Source: Leptogorgia sarmentosa (taxonomy: Eukaryota). Taken from it: a DNA stretch of 64,000 bases. Shown here one piece after another: positions 8,768-62,388 of the stretch; positions within the stretch are counted from its first letter, which is position 1, and every line of letters begins with the position of its first letter. The position numbers and the translations under genes were made by a program. Under the pieces are notes generated by a model. That model was given only the letters and a program-made list of their open reading frames with translations, was not told where the DNA came from and did not search any database. The stretch is taken from positions 16,058,001-16,122,000 of the forward strand of contig OZ210885.1 in NCBI GenBank assembly GCA_964658305.1. Reading direction: 5' to 3'.

Positions 8768-9129
8768 CTTCCTCCTTCGCGCTGCCATTAGCGATCGATC
8801 TCTCAGCCTGCACCGTGTTTGCACGTTCCGACAATTCTCGACCATATTCAATAAGAGTTTAGGAAAAAATCATGAGAATGTAAATCTCATGAACAAAAAT
8901 CCTGTTTTCTTAGCGAGCGAGCAAGCCACACAAAACTACATTCAACACATGAATGCTAGGGCCCTGCTTACCATACAAGTATAATTCGTGGTCGGTCATC
9001 TGCACTGAATATGTCATTATATACATCTCCTGCCAAATGCCGTATCGCGATGATCTGTAAAGGCAAGAATAACTTGTTAGAATTTTGAACTGATAGTGAG
9101 AAATCTTCCCCCAATAATGAAATTGGGGG

Positions 9130-9282
9130 AAGTTGGCCGTACTCGGCGGTAGTGCAATACCAAGACAACCCGTGGCCAGGGCGAAGCAAACTTCAATCCC
9201 ATGGCCGAGGTCCAAAAATCAGTTTAATATATGAGTTAGGACATTGCCTAACACATCAGATATTAAGCTGATAAGAACAGAT
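9130..9282 (-). pseudogene. U2: U2 snRNA 3' portion (nt ~38 to end)
   Basis: ATCTGTTCTTATCAGCTTAATATCTGAT, Sm site GATTTTTGGA, and stem-loop IV CTTGGT-ATTGCACTACC-GCCGAG. Confidence 0.93.
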
Positions 9283-9576
9283 TGTAACAAATTTATTCAA
9301 AACAAGAATTAAATATTTACATTTCTAGATAATTACTATATAAGCAGGCTATAAACACAGCTGTTAAATTATACGTACAAAGTGAGAAATTGCTGATCTC
9401 ATTAGAGAAGGATGATCGACTGGATAGTGTTTGTATTGTATTTCATGTGATTGGAATGATTTAAGATATCACTTATGGTGTGATATACGTATTAACTAAG
9501 AAAGGACGACAAATAAATAGAATTTCTTTTACATGAGTTGATGATGATATAAGATTAGTATAATAATGATATTATA

Positions 9577-17107: not shown

Positions 17108-17576
17108 AGTTGGACACGTCGGCTGCCAGGCCTTTTTTATGTATGAGGACTGTTCGAGAGGTTTTCCATTGAGCAAGGACATCATTCTCAAGGAGGCAAC
17201 TGTTGAATATATTGCAAAGAATTTTTCCTTTGGGATCAATATTTTTAAGATGTCGGTACTCAACTTGATCAGCTCCAGGGGCAGAATTGGACAGGGAGCG
17301 CAACTTCTTGGAGATTTCTTCGGGTGTAATTGGATCTCCTAGGGACATGTCGGCTGCCGGGCCTTTTTTATGTACGAGGACTGTTCGAGAGGTTTTCCAT
17401 TGAGCAGGGACATCATTCTGAAGGAGGCAACGGTTGAATATGTTGCAAAGAATTTTTCCTTTGGGATCAATATTTTTAAGATGTCGGTACTCAACTTGAT
17501 CAGCTCCAGGGGCAGAATTGGACAGGGAGCGCAACTTCTTGGAGATTTCTTCGGGTGTAATCGGATCTCCTAGGGA
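17108..17576 (-). repeat. In-frame 231-bp tandem duplication in the Utopia-like RT region
   Basis: SLGDPITPEEISKKLRSLSNSAPGAD...HKKG occurs twice in ORF 16932-17657. CTAGGGA at 17339 and 17570. Confidence 0.9.
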
Positions 17577-17933
17577 CTCATCTTTGGGACCAGAAGGGAC
17601 GAATTGGTTTAATCCATTTTTCACCTCATCAACATCCACCGACTTTTCACCGAACACTTTGAAAAAGAAGGAATTAGCTTCGTCTACTGAGCCAGAGTAA
17701 GAGGGCTTGTTATCACTAATGACTTGTCTTGTAGCTCGTTTCTTGGAGATTCGATGTAGGGACGATTTGACGACGCGAAACTTTTACAGACGTTACAAGA
17801 TAAACACCGGTAGATGATTCCACACATCTTTAGGTGTAGTTTGATGTAATGGTCTAATTAATTAGATGTAATTTAATGCAGAAAATTATAGAATTTTGCA
17901 GAGCCCACTCGGGTGTGAACCTGCCTGCGTGCG

Positions 17934-17950
17934 TACTACACTTGATCTTA
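17934..17950 (-). pseudogene. U2: U2 snRNA internal fragment nt 22-38, including the branch-point recognition sequence
   Basis: TAAGATCAAGTGTAGTA lies between the Tx1-C 3' end and the Utopia-like 5' end. Confidence 0.88.
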
Positions 17951-18531
17951 TTTTGAGTTGAACGACGACGGGCTTGTCGACTCCGACGGTGCAATGGAGC
18001 CTGGACCCAAACAAATCGCCCCACCCAGGGGGGTCAGGTAACGCGGATCGACAGGGGTCGTGAGCCCCTTCCCCGTGCCATGATGCAACCGTGAGTGGCC
18101 TGAACGATCCGGTGCTAACCACCTTCACGTCCAGGGATCCCTAACCTAATGATGCTGAAATGGTCAGATGATGATGTTAAACTAAACAATTACAACATGA
18201 GCAGCAACCCCTAGATCAACACCTGTGCAACCCGCTCGGAGCAAGTCCAAGCAAACCACAGGGCAAAAATTGAAACAAATAAACAACCCAATCCGATACA
18301 GGCAGTACAACCAATAAAGGCGACCGCCAGATCTTCATGGGAGGACAATACGAACCAACATTAAACATAAAAACAAATGTGCTGTCCAGTCCAAGACAAC
18401 GACACAAAAACAAACGAGTCCAGAAGGCGACGACAGTACAACCACTGAAGGCGACTGTCGTGCTCCTAGACCACTACATTAACACAAGGAAAACGAAAAA
18501 GGAGAAGAGGGAAGAAAGAAAGAAAAAGGGA

Positions 18532-23082: not shown

Positions 23083-23410
23083 AAATGCGGTCCTCCTTCG
23101 CGCTGCCATTAGCAGCCCCGGCTGCAAAATTGCAAGCGAAACGAGCCACAAACGTTATGGCACGCGGTGATGATGAACGCATACAATCAATCATTTGTGC
23201 GCTGCTAATTAATTCGGCTGCACGCGCGAAACTGCTCGCGATGCGGATGCCTTATCCACGAATTTCTGGTGATTTTTTCCCGGTTGCAGGGCGCACATGG
23301 TGCGTTTTCCCGACCTACCTTGGTTCGCTGGCTTCACGACCGATTCGGGAATGGCAAATGACCGACATGCACTGAGTTGAATGAAGCGTGTCCGGTTGCG
23401 TTTCGGTTGG
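23083..23410 (-). promoter_or_regulatory. U2 gene upstream region (proximal part deleted)
   Basis: Highly similar to 50868-50889 plus 51298-51595, which lie upstream of the U2 5' end at 50813. Confidence 0.7.
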
Positions 23411-23413
23411 GGA

Positions 23414-23511
23414 ATGGCCAAGGTCCAAAAATCAGTTTAATATATGAGTTAGGACATTGCCTAACAAATCAGATATTAAGCCGATAAGAACAGAAACTAC
23501 ACTTGATCTTA
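23414..23511 (-). pseudogene. U2: U2 snRNA nt 22 to ~120 (3' truncated)
   Basis: TAAGATCAAGTGTAGTTTCTGTTCTTATCGGCTTAATATCTGAT...GATTTTTGGACC. Confidence 0.92.
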
Positions 23512-24943
23512 TTTTGAGTTGAATGACGTAAGGTTTCGATCATTTCTGACCTGATTCTGGTAGTTCAATGGAACCTCACCTTGTGCAAACGCAGGTGGCG
23601 CTGACCGTCAGGGGTTGTGAGCCCCTCCCCCGTGACATGAGACAACCATGAATGGCCTGAACGATCCGGTGCTAACCACCTTCACGCCCAGGGATCCCTA
23701 ACCTATCATGGTGAAATGGTCAGATTATGATGTTAATCTGGATGGTATCAACATGAGCGGCAACCCCACTGATGCAGCAAGATCGAAAAACATTGAAAAG
23801 CCTGTGCAACCCACACGAGTACAAACCCGAGTGAACCACAGGGCAAAATTAAAGATGCAAGAACAAAGAACATCATCAGACACAGACTGTGCAACCAATG
23901 AAAGCGACCGTCACGTCATCAGATTAACACACACTGCCATCAAATCGCTGACTGTTGCGACTAAGCGAAATATGATGCCGAAGTACACCAAGCAACGCTG
24001 TGTAAGCAACGGGAACACGAGAACCTGAAGAGAAACCAAAGAGTATGTCCGAAAGAGAAGACACAGATGGACATGCGTGTTGTACCCGAGCCAAAAACCA
24101 GTCAAGAACTGCCTTAGCAACCTGACATCGAGCGAAAAGATGAGCCAGGTCTTCCGGAAGACCACAGAAACAATCTGGGTTGACATGGGTTCACGATGGC
24201 CAACTTAGTCAATGCCCATATCACGGAATTTGGCTAAGGAACGATGCTCAACTTGCCGCTGCCGCGAGAGGAACAAGTACCCCTGCGAAGCCAACGGAGG
24301 AGCATGAAATACCAGCTCCATATGATGAGTAAAAAAGACTGACCGAGGATGAGGAGAGGTCGACAAGTATCGTCGGAACCAGACAGCCTTCAATGAGGAG
24401 ATTTTACATGCCACGTCGACCACGCCCAACCCACGATAGGATGCGGGCTGCTTGACAGAAGAACGAGCCATCCATTCACGTTTCTTCCCCCACACAAAGG
24501 GGAAAAGGATCTTATTAACGGCATTAACAACAGACTTGGGTACATCAAAATTGGTGGCTTGATACCAAAAAATGGAAAGTCCCAATACATTTGCGATTAA
24601 TGCACGCCCCTGGAACGGCAACTGGCGCTGTTTCCACAACACCAATTGGCCTTGAAACTGGCCAAGCAACGATATCCAGTCAACCTCATTATTATCATCA
24701 TTGGACCAATTCAGCTCAATCGGCAAATTGACCCGCTGCTTCCACAACCCAACCAAAAGCCCATGACTCTTAGCAACATTCAGTCTGGCACCAGATGCCC
24801 GTTCATACCTCTCAAACAAAGAAAACAAGGCCTGTAAAGCACGATCAGATTGAACGAGTATACTGGTGTCATCCACATACTGGACAATTTTCACTGTCTG
24901 ACCTCCAGGCAAGGCGAACCGTCGATTGCCGGATCTTTCTTTA

Positions 24944-28523: not shown

Positions 28524-30982
28524 GGCTAGATTATAGAATACCCGTCCACTTTTGAAACTATGACTTGTTATCATGATACGATGATACGAAGTGAGAATAA
28601 TGACGTAATATATAGAAAATCCGAGCAAGCTCAAAGTTCCTGGGCAAGATATATTTTTTCGTGATACGATGATACGAAGTGAGAATAATGACGTAATGTA
28701 ATATAGCCGAGTATTTAAAGGAGTCTGGGCAAGGTATATTTTTTCGTGATACGATGATACGAAGTGAGAATATTGACGTAATGTAAGAAGCCTTGCCAAC
28801 ATCTATTTTTTCGTGATATGATGATACCAACTTAAATGTGATTTACCCGCGATTATTCAAAAAGCATGTGTTTCCTAATACAATTAAATCAAGTGAAAAT
28901 AATTATGCTTTTATATTTACTTATGCATATCGTTTTTATAGACCAACCGCACACAAAAACTTGCGAAAACAATACGCTTTCTTCGAAAGCCAACGGTACA
29001 CTATAAGCGTAAACAAACAGTTATTTGTGCTTACAATAATATATATTAGTGTTTACTGTTCGGGTTAGTGTTCAATGTTAGGGTCAGTGTTTACTGTTCT
29101 GGTTAGTGTTCAATGTTAGGGTCAGTGTTTATTGTTCGGGTTTCTTGGAAGGGATTAGCTTGCGTCCACACGTTTTTAACGGAACACATTTATTTATCTC
29201 GGATTTACTGTATATTACGTCATTAATCTCACTTCGTATCATCGTATCACGAAAAAATATACCTTGCTCAGGACCTTTGAGCTTGCTCGGACTTACTATA
29301 TATTACGTCATTAATCTCACTTCGTATCATCGTATCACGAAATAATATACCTTGCCCAGGACCTTTGAGCTTGCTCGGACTTACTATATATTACGTCACT
29401 AATCTCACATCGTATCACGAAAAAATATATCTTGCTCAGGACCTTTGAGCTTGCTCGGACTTACTATATATTACGTCACTAATCTCACTTCGTATCATCG
29501 TATCACGAAAAAATATACCTTGCCCAGGAACTTTGAGCTTGCTCGGACTTATTACATATTACGTTACTAATCTCACTTCGTATCATCGTATCACGAAAAA
29601 ATATACCTTGCTCAGGACCTTTGAGCTTGCTCGGACTTACTATATATTACGTCATTAATCTCACTTCGTATCATCGTATCACGAAAAAATATACCTTGCC
29701 CAGGACCTTTGAGCTTGCTCGGATTTACTATATATTACGTCACTAATCTCACTTCGTATCATCGTATCATCGTATCACGAAAAAATATACCTTGCCCAGG
29801 AACTTTGAGCTTGCTCGGACTTATTATATATTACGTCACTAATCTCACTTATCTCACTTCGTATCATCGTATCACGAAAAAATATACCTTGCCCAGGATC
29901 TTTGAGCTTGCTCGGACTTACTATATATTACGTCATTAATCTCACTTCGTATCATCGTATCATCGTATCACGAAAAAATATACCTTGCTCAGGACCTTTG
30001 AGCTTGCTCGGACTTACTATATATTACGTCATTAATCTCACTTCGTATCATCGTATCACGAAAAAATATACCTTGCCCAGGACCTTTGAGCTTGCTCGGA
30101 CTTACTATATATTACGTCACTAATTTCACATCGTATCACGAAAAAATATACCTTGCTCAGGACCTTTGAGCTTGCTCGGACTTACTATATATTACGTCAC
30201 TAATCTCACTTCGTATCATCGTATCACGAAAAAATATACCTTGCCCAGGAACTTTGAGCTTGCTCGGACTTATTACATATTACGTTACTAATCTCACTTC
30301 GTATCATCGTATCACGAAAAAATATACCTTGCCCAGGAACTTTAAGCTTGCTCGGACTTATTACATATTACGTTACTAATCTCACTTCGTATCACGAAAA
30401 AATATACCTTGCTCAGGACCTTTGAGCTTGCTCGGACTTACTATATATTACGTCATTAATCTCACTTCGTATCATCGTATCACGAAAAAATATACCTTGC
30501 CCAGGACCTTTGAGCTTGCTCGGATTTACTATATATTACGTCACTAATCTCACTTCGTATCATCGTATCACGAAAAAATATACCTTGCCCAGGAACTTTG
30601 AGCTTGCTCGGACTTATTATATATTACGTCACTAATCTCACTTATCTCACTTCGTATCATCGTATCACGAAAAAATATACCTTGCCCAGGATCTTTGAGC
30701 TTGCTCGGACTTACTATATATTACGTCACTAATCTCACTTCGTATCATCGTATCACGAAAAAATATACCTTGCTCAGGAACTTTGAGCTTGCTCGGACTT
30801 ATTATATATTACGTCATTATTCTCACTTCGTATCATCGTATCACGAAAAAATATACCTTGCTCAGGAACTTTGAGCTTGCTTCGGACTTACTATATATTA
30901 CGTCATTATTCTCACTTCGTATCATCGTATCATGATAACAAGTCATAGTTCCAAAAGTGGCGGGGTATTCTATAATCGCTCC
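28524..30982. mobile_element. Non-autonomous foldback TIR element (GG termini, 8-bp TSD; Merlin-like)
   Basis: TSD GACGAAGA at 28516-28523 and 30983-30990. Long inverted termini GG..GATTATAGAATACCC...TGACTTGTTATCATGATACG. No ORF. Confidence 0.8.
29211..30931. repeat. ~88-bp tandem repeat, ~19-20 copies (plus ~3 inverted copies at 28575-28826)
   Basis: Unit TATATTACGTCATTAATCTCACTTCGTATCATCGTATCACGAAAAAATATACCTTGCTCAGGACCTTTGAGCTTGCTCGGACTTACTA. Confidence 0.95.
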
Positions 30983-48647: not shown

Positions 48648-50787
48648 AGATGCCAGAGGTATGAATTTATAACAGTATTAAAATTTCTATTTTTGGGTCG
48701 ACGTTGGTCACTTTAATATTTGTTTTTGGTATGACACTTTTAAGTGAATTTTGACCATTTTGAACTATATTAAAATTGGAACATTTAAGTTACTGTATGT
48801 TACCTATAATAAAATACTATGTAAGTGCAAATAATAGCTAATAAACGAACCCAGTTATTAAACATATACATGAAAAACGCAATGATGAAAACAAATAAAA
48901 TGGTCAATTTGAGTTAAGTTTACAAAGGCAGCTTCAAACTCTTGGATTTCTATTAGAGGTTGGGTAAAAAAGAATTGAACAACCAGAGCAGTTGGGTAAT
49001 TTTTTTATGTATACTTTTTTTAATTTCTCTTCGGTGCCCCCCCGAGGTATAAATAATGAACGGTCCCTTAGCAAGGATCTTATAGTCTGCGCACAGCAGC
49101 GAAATAGGACGCCAATTCTTGGTATCCAATTTATCATTCTTCTTATACAGCAGGGTATAAGGCCGGTACCCTGTGAAAAAGACAAGGAACCACGAGAAAT
49201 ACACGCATTGTACATGTCTACCAAGTCACTGCCAAGCATGTCCCAAAAATGTAAATAGAACTCGTACGGAAGCCCATCAATACCAGGAGACTTATGCTGG
49301 CCAAAGCTCTCAAGGACAACCAAACACTCCTCGACCGATACATCTCCCTCACACAGAGAACCCTCGCGATCCGACAATTTAAGATCCAAGGAGTCCAGGA
49401 AGAAGTCCTGGTCAGGGGGGAGACAGTACTGCAGTGGTAAACAACACTATATAGAAAATACACCAAACACGGATGATGGCGGAGATGGACCGTACCACCA
49501 CGCCTTGAGTGTTTTCTCAAGCTGAAAGAAGTATGCCGAAGACGTCTCACCTTCTTCTGCCTATCGCTCCTTTGCCCGCAGCCGAGCACCATGAGCCCAA
49601 TGGGAATGCTCCGATTGAAGAGAAGCTTTAACATCTGCAATGAGATGGGACACATCCTTACCATTATTCTCACGACAATTGAGATGGAACAAAGTACACT
49701 CTAGAGATTGAATACAAGACCGACGAGACGAAGCCCTTTCCCGAGAATAACGACGCATTAACCGTTTGAAACGCGTCTTACCAGCATCCCACCACATGGC
49801 AAGTCCGGAAAAGAATCCTTTTCTGCCGTAGCAACAAACTCCTCGTCAGACAAAAGGGACGAATTCAATTTCCATACACCCGGCCCCCTATTGGGTAGGC
49901 TAGGGAGATTGACCTTCAAAAACACATAGGAATGATCGGATCTAAAAAAGGGATAAATGTCCACATCACTCACTCCTGCAACAAGATCAGATGAAATCCA
50001 AAATATGTCGAGGTGAGATGCTTGAGAGCCGTTTGCATGATGCCAAGTATATTCCCGCACCTCTGGATGCAAAAGATACTCCCGGAAGAACAAAAGATAC
50101 TGTGGAAGCTTCCTCTCTGGTCAATGTATGGGCCTCAGACTGGACAATCCCTGGCACGGCCTTGGAAGGACACTTATCAGTGAAGTGACCGACCTGACCA
50201 CAAGAAAAACAGGGACGCTTTTGTCCCTTATAGTGAACCACACAATTCTGGCCCGCAATCCTTATGCGCATTGGAATATCCACCCGAATATCCATTAGTA
50301 CATGGCGCACCCCAGTATAAATATTTGCGTATTGTTCTAACTTGAATACGCGAATGTCGCCATATGGAGCTACAGCTCGGCGAATATCATCCTCCGGCAC
50401 TCCGTAGGATAGCCGGGAGAGATTAAGCCACTTATATGTGGTAATAGGCTGATATTGAACAGGATGCCCTCGAACGAGACAACCTGCAGCTTCAAACACT
50501 TCAAGCTTGCGGGAACTCTTACAATGTAGACCACCGCCTTAGCCTTACCCCCTAGAGGGCCACGAAGCATAACCCCAATACCAAGGTCAAGGAGTGATGA
50601 ACAGACACCAAAAAACAGCAACAGCAAACAGAACGTACTTCAATCAACACTGCACAGGACTGAGGACTTCACTACACGTGACGAAATGAAACAGCACCAA
50701 TACACCAAAAAAACCACGAATCTTCTTCACCAACGAAAACTCACGAACTGCTTCAACTTCTGAGAGGTCCAATCCAAATAAGAAATA

Positions 50788-50813
50788 TCTTAGTCAATAG
50801 GCCGAGAAGTGAT
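50788..50813 (-). pseudogene. U2: U2 snRNA 5' end (nt 1-26)
   Basis: ATCACTTCTCGGCCTATTGACTAAGA, with 3 differences from the canonical ATCGCTTCTCGGCCTTTTGGCTAAGA. Confidence 0.85.
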
Positions 50814-51595
50814 GCCTTCTTCGCCGTTCCACACCATCTTTTAAGCGAGAAAAGCAAGGTGAAAAAATGCAGTCCTCCTTCGCGCCGCCGCTTATTTCGA
50901 TTCCGTCGACGGTCGGACACCTCCGAGATGGTCGGACACCTCATTGTATTACATGAACAGCAGTAGCATTAGAAATAAGCATAATAATAATGTTTAATGA
51001 AGGATCAGGCAGCTGGAGCAGTTGGTGTAATGGCAAGGGTACGGACTTCCGTGCAGAGCACCAGGGTTCGATCCCCATCGGGGTACAATATTTTTTCCTT
51101 ATCAGTTTTTTTCGACCTTTAATCTCAAACTTTAATTTTGCCAAAGATTTTTCAACTATTTTTTTTAAAATACGCATATTATTTTGTCAATGTTTAAAGT
51201 TAGGGTTAGGAATAGGGTTTGGGTTAGTGTTATGCGCTGTTGAGGTGCTCAAAACGAGTGAATGAGGTGTCCGACCGTCGACGGAATCGAAATTTGCCGC
51301 GCCGCCATTAGCAGCCCCGGCTGCGAAATCGCGAAGGAAACGAGCCGCAAACGTTATGGCACATGGTGATGATGACGCGTACAATAGATCATTTGTGCGC
51401 TGCTAATTAATTCAGCTGCACACGCGAAACTGCTCGCGACGCGCGTGCGTTCTCCACGAATTTCTGGCGATTTTATCGCACGTGGCGCGTTTTCCCGGCC
51501 TACCTTGGTTCGCTGGCTCCACGACCAATTCAGGAATGGCAAACAACCGACATGCATTGAGTTGAACGAAGCATGTCCGGTTGCGCTTCGGTTGG
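50814..51595 (-). promoter_or_regulatory. U2 upstream promoter region with a candidate PSE (TCACCTTGC...TTAAAAG), interrupted by a MITE
   Basis: Shared with 23083-23410. The TCACC motif lies roughly 50-55 bp upstream of U2 +1. Confidence 0.55.
50890..51297. mobile_element. Mutator-like MITE (9-bp TSD) carrying a tRNA-like segment
   Basis: TSD CGCGCCGCC (50881-50889, 51298-51306). TIR GC..ATTTCGATTCCGTCGACGGTCGGACACCTC. A/B-box-like TGGTGTAATGG / GGTTCGATCCC at ~51015-51088. Confidence 0.8.
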
Positions 51596-51915
51596 AAAAA
51601 TGACGAGTGCATTTGAATTGGAAATGATTGTCTAGTATAAAATGCATGATCAGTTGGCAGCGCGTATCGATTGACTCATTCATTCATTCCGTGTGACGTG
51701 CATACAACAAGGTGTCAGTAATCCAATATTGATTACATGGTTATATATTAGTTTCGAATGACCGCGAAGTAGTATCGAGTAACACATGTTCGTGAAACTC
51801 GCGGCCAGTGTGAAGAACACATAGAATTGTTGTCCCTTCAATAAACTAGGATGCCCGACGACACTTATAATATCAGTTTTGAGTGTGAGAAATGGGAATA
51901 ATAAAATGATGATAA

Positions 51916-52015
51916 AGGGGACAGGCTCGAAGTCAACCCAGTCAAAGTGCAATGAAAGGGCCTCATCCTGAGAGGACCTCCTAGTTGATCAAGGTGCCTC
52001 TCGTATCAGGTAAGT
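51916..52015 (-). pseudogene. U1: U1 snRNA pseudogene with an internal deletion (stem-loop III and Sm site missing)
   Basis: ACTTACCTG 5' end, TGATCA loop I, TGAGGC..CATTGCAC loop II and GTTGAC, then directly TTCGAGCCTGTCCCCT resembling the U1 3' end. Confidence 0.82.
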
Positions 52016-55000
52016 TTATGTTGGATATAGGCAAATCCATCCCCACTGGGGGGGCGTGCAATGGATTTCCCTAAATCGAGGAGGGTGCTACCGGCACGCA
52101 AACGGCTAGGGGGACTATCCCTACTTCCTCATTATTATTCTGACACCTCGATTAGTGCATTTATTTCAGGCAGCAACAGGGATTTAAAAAGAGAACGACC
52201 CCATTGAACCGATCCAGGCACTACAACCAACGAAGTCGACCACCCTTCACGGAACGGCAGAGGAAGAAAAAAGGATTAAAAAACCTAAATAACTAAAAGG
52301 AGAAGACCAGCTCCTCACCCTCGAAATGCCCTAAAATACCACAAGTGAGCCAATCCCACTCAAAGGATCGCAATTGAGCAGTGAGCTTGCACCGACAACC
52401 AAAAAGACGAAGGAGAAACTTTATTTTTGCGATGGCTTTCGCTTGGCAATCCCAGGCGATTGGCCGCTTATCGTGGAAACGGAAATCACAGCACGCCACC
52501 CAGATGGTATGTTTCATCATGTGGAGCATCCACACGATGATGGGAGGCACAATGTGCCGCCGTTCGGACGAGAACCTGAACAAGAGTTCCGTGACGGTAA
52601 ATGGTGCGACAGTAGGACAGATCTGCTATAAAATATAATAATTTATATTTCTTCATCTGCTCGACAGAAACAGCGCATATCGATGTTGGGCATGTTAAAG
52701 CGGGTTCCCAAGCGTGAACCCGTGTAAAGAATGCCGTGAATTTGGCAATACAATGTGGCTGGCTATTTAAATTGCTTTGACTGATGTGGTACACGTTTCT
52801 ACTAGATATGTTATCCACAGGTAGTGGAGAGGCAGACGAGGCAGCAATGCATAAGTCATTGCCGGTAAGACCACCGTCGAGAGATTGCCACACGCGAAAG
52901 ATGATACAATAGAACTCGGGAAAGGCTCGCAAACGACGCTGGGAAAAAGAAGATAAAAGGACCTCACAAGGCTTGGAACCAAGTGAGGCAGAAACAAAAT
53001 GTTCAAAAAAGTCGTTCCATTTGCCACGATCTTCGGCAAAATAACGTTTTACCCATTGAAGGGCAAAAGCGTCTGCCTTGAGTTGGAAATCGATAACTCC
53101 AAATCCACCCTTGGATTTGGGAAGGCAGACTACTTTGTGGGCAACAAGATCCCGCTTGCCAGACCAGAAGAACTTCCAAACGGCCTTGTGAATTCTCTGA
53201 ACCGCCCACTTCGGAACAGGGAAGACGTGAAACAAATGCCATATCTGGGACAAGGCCAAGGTGTTAATGATTGTGGCCTTGCCCTGAAAGGAGAGTTTGC
53301 GTCCAGACCAGTCTGACAAAGGAGGCAGGGCCCCTCACACATATTTGTTGAATTATATTTGTCGTGGCATATCACAGCATTACTGCAATTTCACATCCAC
53401 TTTAGATTTAATTTGTCTTGCATATTCATTTTCTGTATTAAATAACAAAATAAAACCGAATGACGGATAACAAAGTGCCAACGGTCAACATGGGTGCATA
53501 TATGGCTAAAAATTAACACGAATATAATACAAATTAGATATAGTAACCGTTACTGTACATATTTCTGTTTAGTCAGATGATGATCTGTAAACGTTGTGCC
53601 TACGCGATTTCTTCATTGCAAAATCATTGATCAGCGATGAAACTGAAAGGTTTCGCAGCAGTTTCGCTTCAATGCTTAGACGTGTGAGACTGTTCAGACG
53701 TTTCTGTCCCATTGAAGATCGAATGTTACTCTTGATTAGTTTATGTTAGGAAAACAACCTTTCGCCAGAGCAGTTCGAAATCATCAAACTTAAATAAATT
53801 CGTAGTACGATGACAGTATTTGGAAACACTCTCTCCAGATTTTCCGCGACGATTAAGCGGTAAAGGCGCAACTCGGCTGATTCAACGCACAGTAGATAAT
53901 TGTCGTCATCAGCTTCGTTGATGTCCGATTCGTCAGAGGATGTTGCACTCTTCTCCTTGGAAGAACCGGCAGGGGTTGTTGGGACATCAGATACTTCAAA
54001 CTATTTCTCGGCAAAGTCTGTCTTTAAAAAACTTGAAAACTGCAATAGTTGATCAGACAGGCTGTCCTCGAGATCAGTGGGGTAGGCTTTCTGCAGTTTG
54101 ATGGCACATTCGATTAGCTCTTCATTCGACAAGTTCTTAAGGGTTCGCATGAAGCCAAACATAGCAGCAATTTCTGCATAGGCAGCTAGTCGTTTCTCCA
54201 ATTCACTGGCAATACTGTCAACAATTACCAGGAAGGTTACTGTTCGAAACTTGTCGACCGGAGTCTTGGGCTGTTCAGGTGCTGCTTTGGGATCGTCGTA
54301 ACGGCGATTACGTCGACGCATTCGTTTCACTTTCACCTTGTATTGGTCACATTCACTTAATGCTTTTCCCCTGGTTTCAAACTCTTCAAGTCTAGTCCGT
54401 AACTTTCGGATAAACTCCAGAACAGATTTATAGATTGCAACGGCTGAATTGATGTCTTGCTTGGCGGACTGTAGGGCTTGACTGCTGCCGTGAAAACAAT
54501 GCAAGATGTGGTACCACAAAACTGATACAATGCCAGTTTCCAACCGATTCATAACGTCGACGTAGCCTCGGGCTTCTTCGCGAGCCTCAGCTTTTTCTTC
54601 CACGTCGTCAGCAAGTTCCACCAAGGCATCGCAAATTTTCGTCATAGCCATCTACCAGTGCTTTCATCACATCCACACGTGCAGACCAGCGAGTATCCGA
54701 CATGCGCTTGAGAGTGGGAAGCCTTTTGCTAGACAGTTTTTCGTTAAGAACCTTCCAGCGATGCGTTGACGAGGAAAAAAGAGAATACAATCCTTGCAGA
54801 AACTTGAAAAAGGCAATGGCTGCCAGACAGCAACCTGCCGCAGATTCACCAACCAGGTTCAACGAGTGTGCAGCACATGGTATATAATGAGCCAACTCAC
54901 AATGTTGTTGAATGATGGCCTGCATGCCATTGTACTTTCCACTCATATTACTGCCATTGTCGTAGGACTGACCTCTGCAAGCTTTCGGCTAATTGTCGTC

Positions 55001-57878
55001 CAGTATGACCCTGCATGTCAGGGAAGGTAGGAAGGCCCAAAAATAATTTTTAATACGCGAACAGTGAATATTAAATTAAAATGCGCAACGTGCAAGGGCC
55101 CCAAATTTGCACGCAAACCAGGGGGCCCCATATTGACAAGCAAACCACGGGGGCCCAAATTAATGTGCAAACGGAGGGCCCCAAATTAAATTGTTATGCG
55201 AAACACGGGAAGGGGGAATCGACATACGTGAGGAGTGGGGGGGGGGCAAATACACAAATTTCGAGGGGCCCCAAATGTGAACCACAATGGGCGTATCATT
55301 TTCCAGAAAAGGGCGTGACCTATTGAAGATCGGGGCCCCTGAAAGCGCGGGGCCTGGGGCATATGCCGCATCTGCCATGTGCTTAATCCAGGACTGGTCC
55401 TCACGCTCAGCATACTCAATGAGATCCCGGATGAGAAGAGGTTCTCGGAGATAGTACGGCCTGGAACACCGCATGTCTGATCTGGCCACACAACAGACCC
55501 GATGACGGCTAGGAGACGACCCGAAATAGCTTGAGTAGCTATTTTATAGTCGGCATTGAGCAGACTAATCAGCCGCAAGTTCTTTGTCTCCAAGCGGTCA
55601 TTCTTTTTGTATAATACAATGATCAGACCTCAACGCTGAGAGGTGGAAAGCTGGCCGGACTCGTAAGCAACGTTGAGGACGCAAACCAGATCAGCACCAA
55701 GGCATGACCAAAACTTTAGGTAGAACTCCATGGGGAAGCCATCGGAACCCGGAGTCTTTCCTCTAGCCATACCAGATAAGGCAGTAAAGCACTCCTCTAA
55801 AGAGAGAAGACCCTCACAACACGCATGTTCCTCCTTACTAAGGCGGTTAGACAGCTTTGACAGCATCTCATCCTGAGCAGATATATCGCAGGGTGCCACA
55901 GTAAAGAGTCCGGTGTAATACCGCCGCCAGACGTCCAAGATCTCAAAAGGGTCGTGGCGCACGGAACCGGTGTCGGGGTCTTGAATGGAGTGCATCTCCT
56001 GCTTTGCATGACGCTAAGTGGCTAAATTGAGAAAAAGGAGGAGGAAGTTTCCCCCTCCTCAGCCCACTGACAACGAGCACAAACTTGTGCCCCTCTCGCT
56101 TCATGCACAGCAATGCCTCGGAGCTCTTCTTGTACCTCGCAAAGCTTAGTGAATGCAGAGGTATCCCCTGCTTCAAAAAGACGTTGCAGTCTGTGCATTT
56201 GCTTGGTCAGAAAGGATTTATGCTCGCGTCGGTCCAGCTCCTTTGACCGACTAAAAGTCTGTGTCACTTCACAAAGGTAGAATTTCCCTTGGTCCCACCA
56301 ATCCAAAAGTGAAAGGCCTCAGGTGTATAATGGGCCTGCCAGAAGGACCAAAATGAAGTGACAAGGGAGCAATAATTTTCATCGTCCAGGAGGGAAGTGT
56401 TAAACTTCCACACTCCAGGACCACTAACAATACGATAACCGAATTCGAACTTGATCAGCAAGTATTGATGATCGGATAAAAAGGAGCGACGATATTCACA
56501 TTCCCTAATAGACTGTTCCAGACATGTCGGGGCCCAGACCATATCAATGCGCGATGCAAAAGTTCCGGAACCATGGGTCCAGGAATAAGCCTTCTGTGTG
56601 GGATGTAATGTACGCCACACCGGGTATGTCTGGGTATGAGATAGTAGGCCTGCAAAGCCGGGCCACTTTCCTGGGCGCGTGAAGAGGCAGCACCAGTGTA
56701 AGAAGCATGCCGAAGCCAATCCCGATCCTCGTCTAGCACAGAATTAAAATCACCACAAACAAATGTGGGCCTGGTAAGATCAATTAAACCAGGAATTGAA
56801 GAGAAAAAAGTGTTGTGAGCCGGATTCTCATTTGGGGCATATAGTGAGGTGAAACGTAGCTGATCTTCCCCAAAATCAACCAAGACTTGGACTAACCGCC
56901 CATCATCATCTCGAATCACCTGTTTAACCTTGTGAGAATCTTTAATAAGAATAGCCGTGCCACAACGCTTATTTGAAACTGATGACGAGACAGCTCGAAA
57001 GCCAGAATTAGCGAACTACTTCCTAATGGATTCATGCGGTTCGTTTAATATGGTCGTTAAGACCATTGATGTTAATGGACAACAGACTCGCCATCGGAAT
57101 CTGATGTCCCAGATGTGGGCAGCTCACCAAGAAGGAGCTCCTCAATTGATCAGCACAAAGCTGATCACTAAAAGTCGTGCATGTCGAAGATGCACCAACC
57201 TCACTGCCATCATCGCGGAGACCAGACAGTGAGGCTTCATGGATCGATACCAGTGCCTCGAAAAGATCAAGGGATGACTCAAATTGTTGGGACGAGACAT
57301 CCACTGCAGGAGGGTCCTGCGAAGCAGCATTATCATCAAGGCAGAGGCAAGAGCAGGCGCAGATTCATAAGCGACGATAGGATCAACTACCGTATCACCA
57401 CTCAAACACTTGTCCACGTCAGCCTCTGCCTCCATGGCCTCAGGAGTGGCAGTTGGAGTAGGAGGGCTCGGGAACCCTGGCCACACGCTAACGTTGGTCG
57501 GACTCGAAGGAGCAGGAGCAGACTGGCATACCCTCTTGCACACTATACACTCTTCATCCTCACTACGCGAGGAGGAAGAGGAAAAAGGAACATCCCTGGC
57601 GGAGTTGGCCCTAACACCCTTAGGTGACTTGGAAGATGACTTGCCAAGGGGACGTGGGTGTGCATAGGGGATTGGAAGCGCAAAATCAAAGGATTTGCGC
57701 TCCAAATGCTCCGCAGTCAGAGGGTGGTCTGAGCAGACTTAGTCTTGCCAGCCTGACCAGACGGCACAGATGTCCTTCTAGCTTTCTTTATTATTCTCTC
57801 ACAAAGGTCTCCCTTGCGAGAAGAAGAGGAAGCTTGCGGGTTATTGCCATTCTTAACCGAAGCCACCGAAGGCTTAGA
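52016..57878 (-). mobile_element. Tx1-clade retrotransposon copy E (distinct family) whose 3' end abuts the U1 5' end
   Basis: ORF2 pieces MASLLSININGL, SLYAPN, VCGDFN, FLSDHQY, GPGVWKFN, TPGSDGFP, ISLLNADYKI, LSFQGKATIIN, GGFGVIDF, ending at 52293. Central RT lost next to the hAT insertion. Confidence 0.82.
53320..55396 (-). mobile_element. hAT transposon remnant (ZMYM1/Tip100-like transposase C-terminal half)
   Basis: RGQSYDNGSNMSG, YIPCAAHSLNLVG, SDTRWSAR and dimerisation motif SNCSGERLFS. One terminus CAGTCCTGGATTAA at 55396; the other end was not found. Confidence 0.82.
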
Positions 57879-60800
57879 TTTATTATTATTATTATTATTA
57901 AAAAATATTTACACAGGATAAAAATGCTTCAGTGACTATGCACTGCTATCAACGCATGTCCTGTTACCTAAGACTACTAAAATTATGAGTATAAAAAATC
58001 AATATGTTAAGAATATTAAAAATCTGACTGCAGTCAATTCTGCAAAAGGTTTATAATGAACTAAGGTTCTCTTTCAGTTTTCGTTTAAAAAGCATAAAAC
58101 TGTCAATTTCTCTAATATCTTTGGGCAATTTGTTGAATTCAATTGCTCCATTATAATAAAAGGCAAGTTTTGTGGATTCCAAGCGTATTTTGGGAATCCT
58201 GACACTTATTCCGTTTTTCCTTGTATTCTTTACATGTTGTAACCGTTCAAAATAATTGTGAAAGTTACTACACACATTCCTGTCCATGCATTGTTTCACC
58301 AGGAAACACATTTGCAGCTTTGCAAAGCTCATCAGGTCAGGTAATCTTAGATCTGCCGATTCACTCGATTTTATTACTCTAGCAGCTCGATCCTGGAGAT
58401 TTTCAATTCGTGAAGTTTGGGTAGCATTCAAGTTTAGAGTAACAACGCTGGAATACGTTAGTAGTGGCATTATCATGCATTTGTATATAGATTCAGCAGC
58501 GTCCATAGTTAAAGAAGATCGTATTTTCTTAAGCAACCTTAACCTGCCAGATGCTTTCCTAAAAGCTTGACCAAAATGTTCTTTCAAGTTTACATTCTGG
58601 TCCACCAATACTCCAAGATATCTATATTTAGTTGTGAAATTGATCAGTTTATCGTTTAGATATACTCTTATGGGGTTACTTTGTATTCTACGACTAGTTC
58701 CCAGTAACATAGACTCAGTTTTTCCTTTGTTGAGATTTATGATTAGATCATTCTCATCTAACCATTTAGCAACAACTTGCATTTCACTTGTAAGTTGATT
58801 TTCAATTTCAGAAATGTCTTGCCCAGCCAGGAACAGAACTGTGTCATCAGCATACTTTATGATATGTGCACCAATGAGATGGTCGTCGATATCATTAATG
58901 TACAATATGAATAAAAGAGGCCCCAAGATAGACCCTTGGGGTACTCCTGATGTGACTTTGAATTTCTCTGATAATGAACCATCGAAGCTAACACGTTGAG
59001 ATCGATTAAACAAGTAATTGGTAAACCATTCCAGCTCATATGACTTAATACCAAATCTTGTTAATTTATTTAGCAGATTAGAGTGGGACACAGTGTTGAA
59101 GGCTTTGGATAGATCAATGAAGACCATTCCTGTTAGTAGTCCCTTATCCATATTCGCTCGGACTTTATCCAATAATAGTGTCACAGCTAATTGCGTTGAT
59201 CGTTTTGGTCGAAATCCAAATTGAGAGTCGTTTATCAAATGATTTGTCTCTAAATAATTCATCAGTTGATCATGCACCACTCGTTCCATAACTTTTGTGA
59301 CAGCCGGTAATATGGATATAGGACGGTAATTATCAAAATCATTGGTGGGCCCCTTTTTGTGAACTGGGATGACTTTAGCCACTTTCCATTCGGATGGTAT
59401 TGCTCCAGTACATAAGCTCATATTTATTATATGTGCCAGAGGATCCTTGACAACAGACGAGCAGTCCTTAAGTGATCCAGGAGGGATATTATCAATACCA
59501 GCAGCTTTTGATCGCTTTAATTGATTCAATTTCTTTTCTATGTAGTGTGCAGTGACTGGCATAAACTGAAAGCTCATGTTAGTTTGGGTAATGGGTACAT
59601 GCCGATGACCCCAAACAAAGTCTTTCAGAGGACAGGATTTGCGTTTTAGGTTGTCTATGACAGTCGAGAAGAATGATCCAAATGCATTTGCTATACAATT
59701 ACTATGCGTAATTAGTTTGCCTTCAACATGAAATGATCGCCCAGTACACTTTGCCGACGTATTAGGAAAAATTTCTTTTATGGTACTCCAAAACTTTTTT
59801 GGATTTCTGGAATTCTCCTTCAGTAAATCTTTGTAATAGCCGTTTTTATTCATCTTGACTAAATTGTTTACACGATTTCGTTTTCTTTTATATTTATACC
59901 AATCATTCTCAGCATTTGATTTCCTAGCTTTCTTTAAAAGCCAATCCCGTTTGACCATTTCACGCTTCGTTTCATTTCGTAACCATGGACAGGGGCGACC
60001 ACGGATTTTCTTTCTAGTTAGTGGGGCATATTTGTCAACAGCAGAAAGAAAAATGTGTTTAAAATTTTCCCATGCTGATTCAACTGTTTTTGAAGCGAAC
60101 ACTGAATCAAAACTGGATTGCCGAAGATTAGTACATAGATCTTCATGATTATAATTCCTGTAGTCACGGGCTTCGATAGTACGGGCTTTAAATGAATGAT
60201 TGTTTAGTTTACGCACAGAGCCGATCATTTCATGGTCACTCAAGCTTGCAGATATTACTTCAACCTTACTAATATTCTGGGGCTTGTTTGTACAGATGAC
60301 ATCAATTAGTGTCGAAGACTCAGGAGTAATTCTCGTGGGGTCTTTTACCATTTGCATCTATTATAGATTTAATATCTGCATCATTGCTTTTCTTTAAAAA
60401 ATTGCAGTTTATATCACCCATTAGAATCACTTCTTTATTCTCGGCTGCTACTGATGTTAGCATATCATCAAAATAGGCAGGGAAATCTTTTGGCAAAAAC
60501 TTTGAACCATTTGGAGGCCTATAGAGTGTCCCAATCAAGAAACCTTTGGTATTCTTGAGTAAAACTTCAATCCACAGACATTCCAAATGGGGACTTTCTA
60601 GATCATGTCTTCTCAGCCATTGAACTCGGTCTGCTATAAAAGCAGCAACGCCACCAAAGTTTCCGTTTGTCCGATTTCTATAGACCATTGAATACCCGGG
60701 AATACTCGGCAATGATTGAATATTTTCTTCATGCAAATGCGTTTCACTCAAAGTTAACATATGAATATCCTTATAGTTTTTGAGAATAAATTCAATGTGT

Positions 60801-61290
60801 GGATATTTTGTAGCCAAACCACAGATATTCTGGTGTAATAACTTTATTCCCTTTGAACTAACAAGGTTAAGTAGTTCCTCTAAGGCTGGTTGGTCATCAG
60901 ACATACCTTCTCCAAGTTAAATGTTATTTCCCGAGGCGGCCATATTGGATTCATAGCATTCAGAACAGACACCAGCCCCATCACTTTCGTCAAAACATTT
61001 GAGATGGAATTTCCTTTCGCATTCATTGCAGTTTATATTGCTTTGGTTTCTTCTAATAATCTTCTGGCAATTACAGCAGTTCGAAGGACCTGGACAGGTC
61101 TCAATATCACCACACAATAGTAGAAGGAAAATCATTGCCTTTACTCTTTGCTTACGATATGATATGCTAAAGTAAGCTCGAATATTCCACAGCGATGAGT
61201 ATGTATACGTTTCGTTTGTAGATACAACCACAGCAATCACTGCTTATATATTGGGCTTTATTAACCGTAAGAATCGTGATAAATACAAGA
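57879..61290 (-). mobile_element. CR1/L2-group LINE (PHD-like finger + APE + RT) with a (TAA)n tail
   Basis: HQNICGL, LSETHL, YRPP, GDIN, LSDH, NYRPISIL, QFGFR, IDLSKAF, GVPQGSILGPLLF, KYADDT and YRYLGV. Tail at 57880-57900. Confidence 0.9.
58051..61240 (-). pseudogene. LINE EN-RT polyprotein with an N-terminal 2A-like motif and PHD-like finger; stop and frameshift present
   Basis: ORFs 60917-61240, 60320-60904 and 58051-60357. Confidence 0.85.
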
Positions 61291-61297
61291 GTACATA

Positions 61298-62125
61298 TCA
61301 GAACGCCTTCACCTGACGCCATGTTGTATTTCTACTATTACTAGTGGTACTATTACGGCCCTGAGTACCAATAGATGTGGCATTGCCCTCTCGCGCCTGA
61401 ACAGATGGTGCAGCTGGCTTATTAGCCATCTTAGCTAGCTTCTCACGAAGATCTCCAGTGCGTGAGGAAGAGGACGATGGAGAAAGTTCAGATGATGCCG
61501 GCGGGTTTTTGCCATTCCTGCTATTCTGCTTTGATGACTTTGGGCAGTCTTTTGCCGTGTGCCCAACCTCCTGGCACGCAAAGCAAGTAGGAGGCTGCCC
61601 GTGGTAGCGAAACGACAGCTGAAATCCAACCACGCGAATTTAAGCTGGGATGGCCTTCGAAATGACTATTTGCACCATACGTGTGCCAGATTTAACAGAC
61701 GGGAAGCCCTTGATGGTTAAGTGCTTCACCGCGATCACACGACCGTATGGTGCCAAGGCGTTGTAAATGTAATGATCCGGCATCTGAGGAGGCGCACGAT
61801 CCAGAAAAACGGATTTGACCTCCTCATAGGCCAGGAAGGGCGTGATGGTAAGGCCCCGAAAGTTAAGACTGTTGATGTCAAACTGACTTCCAATGGCGGG
61901 AGAAGAAAAACACACACAAAATTTAATGCCAGGCAAGGCCTGAACACACGTCACACGCTTCTCCCCAATGGCCTTAACTAGTTCTGCCCGTAGTTGAGGG
62001 ACTTTGGATTTGCCAACCAGTTTTTTTGGCAAGAGAAACACAGACGTGGTCTGGTTCCACTTCACAAGGTCCTCCTGACTAAATGCAGCTGGGGCAGACA
62101 TACTGCCAAAACAGGTAATACCCAA
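61298..62125 (-). pseudogene. Tx1-type ORF1 (CCHC knuckle), E family or a sibling copy
   Basis: ALAPYGRV...KSGTRMV...YHGQPPTCFACQEVGHTAKDCP, with one internal stop. Confidence 0.75.
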
Positions 62126-62388
62126 GTGACAAAAAATTGAGCCTTAAAAAGTACTACAAATTAAGACCCACACACACTAAGGATCAATAACTAAGTGGAA
62201 AGAAAGGTCCTTTAAAGAAAAAGAGCCAGGGAACGGATATGTTGGCCCACCGACCTCAATCTGCAACACCGAAAGCAAAAAAGAACCTAAAAGGCCGCCG
62301 ACCTTTGAGTTGTCCCCAAACAGACTCCTCAACAGGTCACACACAAGAAGAGATAGTACCCACTACCTAATAAAAACAATAAAAACAC

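Follow-up and report, generated by a model that had tools for sequence, protein, structure and literature searches.

Few mobile elements that choose small nuclear RNA (snRNA) genes as targets have been described, and the accessible part of one survey names only Keno and Utopia (U2), Dada-U1 (U1) and Dada-U6 (U6) as reported by 2015 (PMC4640811). Keno is a Tx1 clade retrotransposon without long terminal repeats (non-LTR), of the apurinic/apyrimidinic endonuclease (APE) type, and is specific for U2 snRNA genes (Kojima and Fujiwara 2004, as quoted in the accessible parts of PMC4494074 and PMC4640811). The Dada-U1 elements of zebrafish are DNA transposons specific for U1 snRNA genes (PMC3706591, accessible part), and SINEU as well as U1- and U2-headed Tx1 copies are known in crocodilians as snRNA-headed retroposons (PMC4494074, accessible part). 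The subject of this work is a long interspersed nuclear element (LINE), here called copy E, which lies next to a U1 sequence in a 64,000-nucleotide stretch of Leptogorgia sarmentosa DNA (contig OZ210885.1, positions 16,058,001 to 16,122,000), referred to as the window. This decayed element is joined to nucleotide (nt) 3 of U1, and it is reasonably probable that this base is the specific insertion site of its family and that the conserved C-AUUGCAC hairpin in its 3' untranslated region (UTR) would recruit the U1A/U2B''(SNF) protein.

Copy E shares with Keno the architecture of its second open reading frame (ORF2), with APE, reverse transcriptase (RT) and zinc finger, an ORF1 with a CCHC knuckle (seen in relatives from the metagenome-assembled genome, or MAG, G001), a precise 3' junction in a multicopy spliceosomal RNA gene and tandem insertions, and U2-inserted copies of the Keno kind are found in the same window (at 2504, 17946 and 23507). 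Copy E differs from Keno in its target: Keno uses an internal U2 site, and E sits in U1, two bases past the start of transcription. The U1 target is shared with Dada-U1, and the ATTGCAC/GTGCAAT near the Dada-U1 ends matches the ATTGCAC of U1; however, Dada-U1 is a DDE transposase element located deeper inside U1 with 6-bp duplications, and its motif is a DNA subterminal inverted repeat thought to act in target recognition (PMC3706591, accessible part), whereas in E the motif is a single-sense RNA hairpin of a LINE 3' UTR. In SINEU, U1 is likewise joined directly to Tx1-type retroposons, but the snRNA piece stands at the SINEU 5' end as a result of template switching (PMC4494074, accessible part), whereas U1 follows E on the 3' side at a single fixed position, and the U1 behind the G001 elements is the intact target gene. 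No published report of a U1-targeting LINE was found in the full-text literature, a scope from which subscription journals and Repbase fall out; within the same scope, no paper combined AUUGCAC with a retrotransposon or tied U1A to a hairpin of a non-LTR retrotransposon.

The junction with U1

On the minus strand copy E reads ...CCTATATCCAACATAA|ACTTACCTGATACGAG, where 52016 is the last base of E and 52015 is U1 nt 3. Across the junction, ...GGGAAATCCATTGCACGCCCCCCCAGTGGGGATGGATTTGCCTATATCCAACATAA is directly followed by ACTTACCTGATACGAGAGG..., and the exact boundary could slide within the AAA run. A preliminary description, made from the letters of the window, had noted that the E end CCAACATAA abuts U1 at nt ~1-3 and is preceded by AAATCC-ATTGCAC-...-GGATTT, and both were borne out, the former at nt 3 and the latter 47 nt before the end. 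Its remark that only one junction is visible also holds for the window, where ACTTACCTG is present once and no second U1 5' end was found with a 16-mer of the U1 5' end and up to 3 mismatches.

Seven sequencing runs under two organism labels contain part of the stretch. Their Logan contigs were matched at 80% likeness, and the junction region (51975-52165) was compared in four runs (X1, X2, X6 and X7), a bridging record being one with at least 31 letters on each side of the junction. Three records bridge it (X1 record 2, X6 record 9 and X7 record 21), all belonging to a diverged variant with 13-16 differences from the window and, in the X7 form, a 21-nt insertion; another five, shorter, extend across or into the junction, namely X6 records 10-12, X1 record 3 (with 12 letters of U1) and X7 record 22, which represents a deletion variant. 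Among the contigs reaching E's end in the four runs none has a flank other than U1, which is true of three sequence variants, and none of the 15 loose ends listed is on E's side of the junction. The loose ends at 52015 (X2, X6 and X7) represent the upstream flank of uninterrupted U1 genes, which in the runs read ...GAAGTCAT|ACTTACCTG with the usual AUACUUACCUG start. Contig depth, taken as a rough ratio only and not as copy number, is nearly equal in X6 for the E UTR unitig (1757) and the junction unitig (1815).

Relatives of E were searched for with a profile of 15 relatives on one genome per prokaryote species, yielding 27 loci; the matched loci are plainly eukaryotic contigs mis-binned into MAGs. 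G001, nominally a bacterial MAG, has a regular 2081-bp U2-U1-5S array and many intact elements, whose ORF2 is 42-43% identical to P0001, the best protein relative of E. A census of ORF2 C-termini in G001 gave 11 matches (10 open frames of 1175-1202 amino acids (aa), and L041 with 688). Downstream reading reached the 3' end in nine of them, two contigs stopping too early. Six of the nine ends are located at U1 nt 3 and represent four distinct families (a-d), with two identical duplicate pairs (L031=L032 and L035=L036); one further copy of family d has a deletion into U1 nt 7, one end is at U2 nt 1, and one is ~7 nt ahead of a gene for glutamine transfer RNA (tRNA-Gln). A pattern census (heptamer, gap, U1 5' end) found 11 places in G001, compared with 0 for the reversed-pattern control, and added the 5'-truncated types e1, e2, f, h, i1 and i2. 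Ten distinct G001 3' modules end ...AAAYAYAAAA|ACTTACCTG, at the same U1 base as E, and the E tail AACATAA is similar to the G001 tails AAACATAAAA.

The U1 behind the G001 elements is full length (Rfam 153.9 bits, compared with 155.6 for uninterrupted genes), while the 5' junctions vary, U1 being retained to nt 13, 15 or 18 before the element starts. The intact copy L006 2185-7723, with an ORF1 of 489 aa and an ORF2 of 1175 aa, is flanked on both sides by ACTTACCTGACGC, a 13-bp target duplication (U1 nt 3-15; L006 2172 and 7724), and 13-16 nt of U1 stand between tandem elements. The precise 3' end, the ragged 5' ends and the regeneration of the target indicate repeated target-primed insertion and not duplication. 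This bears on the possibility that, in the window's species, E was inserted beside a U1 repeat a single time and by chance, and that tandem or segmental duplications of the snRNA array then produced the further copies, without any choice of target. The high repetition of U1 and its flank in the runs, the identical element-plus-flank units in G001 and the fact that E's own family is seen in short contigs only would all agree with it. Nevertheless, three E variants share the junction (the major one, the one with 13-16 differences plus the 21-nt insertion, and the deletion form), and relatives of ~42% ORF2 identity elsewhere use the same base with ten 3' modules and with 5' junctions at U1 nt 13, 15 and 18. 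Duplication cannot yield varied modules and varied 5' junctions at one base, and this explanation is therefore considered improbable. The preliminary description had proposed a U1-specific element inserting at the transcription start, and in agreement with this random flanks are absent both from the Logan contigs and from the G001 relatives; that E's family aims at U1 nt 2/3 is highly likely.

The U1 piece of the window aligns well for nt 3 to ~87 only. At ~nt 87 it is joined to 335 nt of highly repeated sequence (51298-51930 region), its 3' half has a 61-nt insertion, and no Sm site was seen; in a contig of run X5 the canonical stem-loop III follows at 51931, exactly where the window diverges, and the remainder of U1 (stem-loop III motif) is absent from the window. 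Stem-loop II of this fragment carries an AUUGCAC of its own at 51947-51953. The end near nt 87, with another highly repeated sequence attached, might mean that the U1 piece is the head of the downstream sequence, acquired by template switching or read-out, and that E merely stands in front of it with a chance heptamer; snRNA-headed retroposons are indeed described (PMC4494074, accessible part). On the other hand, U1 from nt 3 follows in every contig that reaches E's end, the U1 behind the G001 elements is full length and belongs to the regular U2-U1-5S array, and the heptamer recurs in 12/15 modules (see below), which makes such an origin extremely improbable. The segment 51298-51595 is 85% identical to the stretch upstream of the U2 start (23099-23410). 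Contig depth over 51298-51930 equals U1 depth, and the region may be a variant unit of the snRNA array.

Relations within the group were assessed by a quick maximum-likelihood tree of a 249-column ORF2 segment, in which most rows have no known target. E and P0001 were paired (support 98) within a 12-row clade; the neighbouring 11-row G001 clade (support 91) mixes U1-nt-3, U2-nt-1 and tRNA families, and the U2-inserted copies of the window stand outside on a long branch. All three targets of the group are located at, or a few bases from, the start of a small-RNA gene. The tree permits an old U1 habit with later target switches and does not show it.

Several points weigh against E as a site-specific U1 element. 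The Rfam U1 match of the window (52017..51812, minus strand; 54.5 bits, E 1.2e-12) is under the gathering score of 69.5, and the poor 3' half, the 61-nt insertion and the lack of an Sm site mean that E is flanked by a truncated piece of U1 rather than by an intact gene. The expected 5' junction, i.e. the upstream flank of an intact U1 with a second U1 5' piece, is absent from the window; since this junction is not visible, no target duplication is shown for E. E's own family is known only through short Logan contigs, X5-X7 are not recorded as DNA or RNA runs, and run X2 contains U1 with no cover of E. Some of the G001 junctions were multiplied by duplication, as the identical pairs indicate. 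Finally, the U1-nt-3 families do not form one clade on the tree (3 changes, a number as low in 185/500 shuffles).

Other searches were less productive. L004, the closest relative with DNA (56% identity), is on a contig that stops 177 nt past ORF2, short of the expected junction, and no further copy of this element was found in its genome. Pattern matches of the type ATTGCAT...ACTTACCTG in G002, G004 and G005 are not followed by U1 and were rejected as chance. A protein scan of metagenome contigs revealed no relative of E; the junction 20-mer was found there at 3 loci, which share only the 20-mer, lack U1 and were likewise dismissed as chance matches. Viral contigs contained no relative of E.

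Several side observations concern the relatives. Several public genomes filed as bacterial MAGs (loci L004-L056, G001-G005) include plainly eukaryotic contigs with U1-U2-5S arrays, tRNA clusters and intact LINEs, a contamination of which users of these bins should be aware. One sister family, represented by one instance (L013 8435-8613), stops ~7 nt short of a tRNA-Gln(CTG) gene and contains two hairpins with AUUGCAC, and another, also with one instance (L010/L034, G001 C68, ORF2 at 17500-18405), ends at U2 nt 1 and is without the heptamer. The 3' UTRs of L031, L033, L035 and L037 contain a well conserved GGCGGGGTTCGATYCCCYGGCGAAGTTGGCG ~150 nt before the 3' end, which resembles a tRNA T-arm. 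A more distant LINE on another mis-binned contig (L015 60-100 and 5950-6102; 29% ORF2 identity) is located within U1 near nt 17-20, with U1 nt 1 to ~20 on its 5' side and U1 resuming at ~nt 18 past its 3' end; it carries AUUGUAC 40 nt ahead of the 3' end.

The 3' UTR hairpin and the U1A/SNF site

U1A contacts the heptamer AUUGCAC and the closing C:G pair, also binds a near-identical internal-loop site in its own pre-mRNA, and the heptamer was selected in loops of varied size, the changes A1-to-G and G4-to-A costing 5-6 kcal/mol of binding (PMC2203988, accessible part). In the fly, the C:G-closed loop AUUGCACCUC of U1 is a binding site of SNF, which together with U2A' also binds the U:G-closed AUUGCAGUACC of U2 (PMC5992148, accessible part). 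In the window, U1 stem-loop II and U2 stem-loop IV both read AUUGCAC. In the polyadenylation-inhibition element (PIE) of the U1A pre-mRNA, the heptamer box is present twice, in internal loops separated by a few base pairs. The elements described here share with U1 stem-loop II and PIE the heptamer immediately behind a C:G closing pair, displayed either in a hairpin loop of 10-13 nt (G001 d, f, g, the first hairpin of e1, and the U2-inserted copies) or as an asymmetric bulge next to a second stem (E and G001 a, c, e, h and i); they differ in that the predicted site of E is located in a retrotransposon UTR. The likeness to PIE suggested in the preliminary description applies to the single box of E but not to the paired-box arrangement, which E lacks.

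Two variants of the E hairpin occur in the runs, a major one (52040 T>C and one C fewer) and a diverged one with five changes. In the lowest-energy fold of both, the outer stem AAAUCC/GGAUUU encloses a 7-nt bulge, which is exactly the heptamer position, and a GC inner hairpin. By arithmetic (94/4^7), the heptamer would turn up by chance within the terminal 100 nt of a single UTR strand with a probability of ~0.006, and a closing stem of at least 6 bp was obtained in 15/2000 shuffles of E's downstream sequence; such a stem is by itself weak evidence.

Fifteen modules were counted for conservation, namely E, ten G001 modules at U1, the tRNA and U2-nt-1 families and two types of U2-inserted copy. 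The exact heptamer is present in 12/15, and in 11 of these 12 a distance of 38-50 nt separates it from the 3' end, the exception being module b with 26 nt. Among ten aligned modules, the preceding C and TTGCAC are invariant (10/10) and the A is kept in 9/10. The C that closes the heptamer has a G partner and a stem of at least 4 bp in 11/12 heptamer modules, b being the one that fails. The closing stems have 4-11 bp and differ in sequence (UCC/GGA, AAGC/GCUU, AGGC/GCCU, GGGC/GCCC, GAGC/GCUC and AGCC/GGCU). Simple hairpins with 10-13-nt loops starting with AUUGCAC are found in G001 f, g and the first hairpin of e1, and the heptamer is a bulge next to a small tetraloop hairpin in G001 a, c, e1, e2, h and i; the window's U2-inserted copies read GGCUCC[AUUGCACCGUC]GGAGUC. 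Types e1 and e2 have two boxes, 48-49 nt apart in separate hairpins. The sense-strand ATTGCAC of the G001 loci is distributed (n=25) between U1 stem-loop II (9), element 3' UTRs (12) and other places (4).

In the lowest-energy folds of eight G001 hairpins the heptamer is unpaired behind a C:G pair in 6/8. Six G001 modules have 93.3% of cells paired, compared with 27-51% for slid-partner controls; 4/11 pairs change on both sides, and the covariation score of 0.315 vs 0.185 was reached by 1/500 shuffles. These pairing and covariation figures are somewhat flattering, because the structure was drawn from the same, related sequences. Nested and simple hairpins were not brought into one register by MAFFT.

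Only the U1A/SNF determinants are kept and all else varies, and for this reason the module is read as a selected mimic of an snRNA protein-binding loop; the hairpin is quite likely a selected copy of the U1A/SNF site. Whether it acts through the host protein is a separate matter, and the prospect that the E hairpin would recruit U1A/U2B''(SNF), as predicted from its sequence, is put at slightly below even. Recognition of stem-loops by LINE reverse transcriptases is established. As the main rival reading, the hairpin might be the element's own signal, bound by its RT or ORF1 protein to start at the 3' end as in 'stringent' LINEs, with no host U1A/SNF involved and with a likeness to U1 stem-loop II that plays no part in the binding of a host protein. 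The fixed distance of the hairpin from the 3' end and its retention across families with different targets (U1, U2 and the tRNA-Gln flank) speak for this. Against it, the probability that a conserved 7-mer of arbitrary sequence coincides with the U1A heptamer is ~6e-5, and the C:G closure together with a freely varying 3' part of the loop corresponds to the published U1A determinants (PMC2203988, accessible part). An own signal without the host protein is rather unlikely on this evidence, and the two readings are not mutually exclusive.

The likeness to the U1A/SNF site is weakened by a number of observations. An internal loop displaying AUUGCAC, as proposed in the preliminary description, is found in the two run variants, but in the lowest-energy fold of the window copy AAAUCCAUU is paired with GAUGGAUUU, which puts AUU in a stem, and opening the heptamer costs 3.7 kcal/mol; the diverged run variant has AUUGCAU instead of AUUGCAC. 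In a permissive scan, 10% of positions picked at random in the window had a closing stem of at least 6 bp. One-base variants of the heptamer, other than those measured in the accessible part of PMC2203988, are present in three modules. Family d has the simple-hairpin form with UUUGCAC, the third and more diverged U2-inserted copy of the window has AUUGAAC, the U2-nt-1 family (L034) is without the heptamer, and a stem is nearly lacking in module b. With a covariance model derived solely from the six G001 modules, the E module was placed correctly, but not significantly (10.1 bits, E 4.8, rank 8/14), and the best matches of the model covered the A-rich tail only. Moreover, the heptamer is also present in the tRNA-associated relative, which means that the motif is not tied to U1 as a target.

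The last point also concerns the origin of the motif. The preliminary description had regarded AUUGCAC in E as an independent instance; the heptamer is indeed present in E, but the module looks inherited and conserved and not gained twice, because U1-, U2- and tRNA-associated families have it in the same place, with the same C:G closure and a similar A-rich tail.

Architecture of copy E and other features of the window

The features of copy E and of its surroundings are given in Table 1. P0001, an 1181-aa protein, is the best of 32 relatives of E in a large protein collection (65% identity over 83% of E's C-terminal piece), and its tblastn placement on the window (residues 24-591 at 57093-55397 and residues 791-1180 at 53319-52299) follows one order and one orientation. 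P0001 itself contains RVT_1 (122 bits), Exo_endo_phos (66 bits) and zf-RVT (23.9 bits, below the cutoff of 27.5); zf-RVT reaches the cutoff in the ORF2 of the G001 relatives (27.5 bits). The frame pieces of E gave weak Pfam matches to Exo_endo_phos and RVT_1, and the RT core is missing from E itself. The break in E is marked by loose contig ends at 53320/53328, where other copies run on differently. Within the foreign DNA, ORFs at 53746-54988 were found, with a weak match to a hAT dimerisation domain at 53746-54000 (E 0.0054, below the cutoff).

Table 1. Coordinates of copy E, its flank and the U2-inserted copies in the window
Feature	Position	Strand	Remarks
U1 snRNA fragment	51931..52015	-	nt 3 to ~87: 5' splice-site-pairing end, stem-loop I, stem-loop II; cut before stem-loop III
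3' UTR of copy E	52016..52292	-	277 nt between the stop codon of ORF2 and the end of the tail CCAACATAA (52024..52016)
Hairpin AAAUCC-[AUUGCAC]-GC-rich inner hairpin-GGAUUU	52033..52068	-	AAATCCATTGCACGCCCCCCCAGTGGGGATGGATTT, 52068..52033; heptamer 52056-52062, 47 nt from the E end
ORF ending ...EELVFSF	stop at 52293-52295	-	C-terminus matches that of P0001
ORF2 C-terminal third of copy E	52293..53319	-	~P0001 residues 791-1180, frameshifted; tblastn 65-71% identity
Foreign hAT-like DNA in E	53325..55396	.	~2.08 kb; replaces the RT core (P0001 residues 592-790); gap in the P0001 map
ORF2 N-terminal half of copy E	55397..57098	-	AP-endonuclease and RT start, frameshifted; tblastn P0001 residues 24-591, 73-83% identity
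Region upstream of E's ORF2	57099..57880	-	5' UTR or ORF1 remnant; no Pfam match; 5' end undefined
U2-inserted LINE 3' ends	2504-2575, 17946-18020, 23507-23600	-	...AAAATAAG|ATCAAGTGTAG, or tandem with the next copy

The ORF2 pieces of E share just 28-52% identity with the U2-inserted LINE copies of the window, and E is therefore a different family of the same general kind; with a separate set of 1181-aa APE-RT proteins their identity is 65-83%, which upholds the 'different Tx1 family' of the preliminary description. Judged by architecture and habit, copy E is a decayed APE-type LINE of a Tx1/Keno-like kind. Of the three U2-inserted copies, two have the hairpin heptamer, 44-49 nt from the end. 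U2 genes or fragments were observed in the window at 9127-9316 and 23409-23532.

The upstream region of E adjoins the (AAT)n tail of another LINE (57880-62143, minus strand), which has an intact-looking APE and RT (768-aa ORF, 58051-60357) and a CCHC-knuckle ORF1. A LINE copy of the same general kind as E is located at 49064-51200 (minus strand), with a CCHC ORF1 at 49987-50538 and APE/RT pieces; telomere-like CCCTAA repeats are found in its upstream region, after an snRNA-upstream-like segment. A block of short tandem or inverted repeats, with ~88-nt units that are 76-94% alike in self-comparison, occupies 28529-30977.

Proposed mechanism and its meaning

The insertion may proceed as follows. 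The endonuclease of the element would nick the bottom strand opposite U1 nt 2/3, and reverse transcription would begin on the A-rich tail, where U1 sequence present on the RNA through read-through might act as a guide. A second nick might occur ~13 nt downstream. The full-length copy would end up ~15 nt behind the U1 start site and could be read from the U1 promoter; in general, an insertion at the start of a U1 or U2 gene would put a full-length copy under the external promoter of that gene. The hairpin, predicted to bind U1A/SNF, might serve in nuclear import, in delivery to snRNA gene loci or in protection of the 3' end. In its widest form, which is proposed only tentatively, the scheme describes a site-specific LINE lineage at the transcription starts of small-RNA genes, whose 3' UTR mimic of U1 stem-loop II and U2 stem-loop IV would capture U1A/U2B''(SNF), and this protein would carry the ribonucleoprotein into the nucleus and to the snRNA arrays.

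Site-specific LINEs serve as natural models for safe, targeted gene insertion, and only in a few cases is it understood how the site is found. With a family directed at base 2 or 3 of U1 genes, the short published list of snRNA gene targets would gain a new entry. The conserved C-AUUGCAC hairpin leads to a directly testable hypothesis, according to which the RNA of a retrotransposon uses mimicry to enlist an RNA-binding protein of the spliceosome, and point mutants with known binding penalties are ready for this, because the U1A-hairpin complex is among the best understood RNA-protein contacts. If the hypothesis is true, the retrotransposon would find its target in the guise of the RNA that the target itself encodes.

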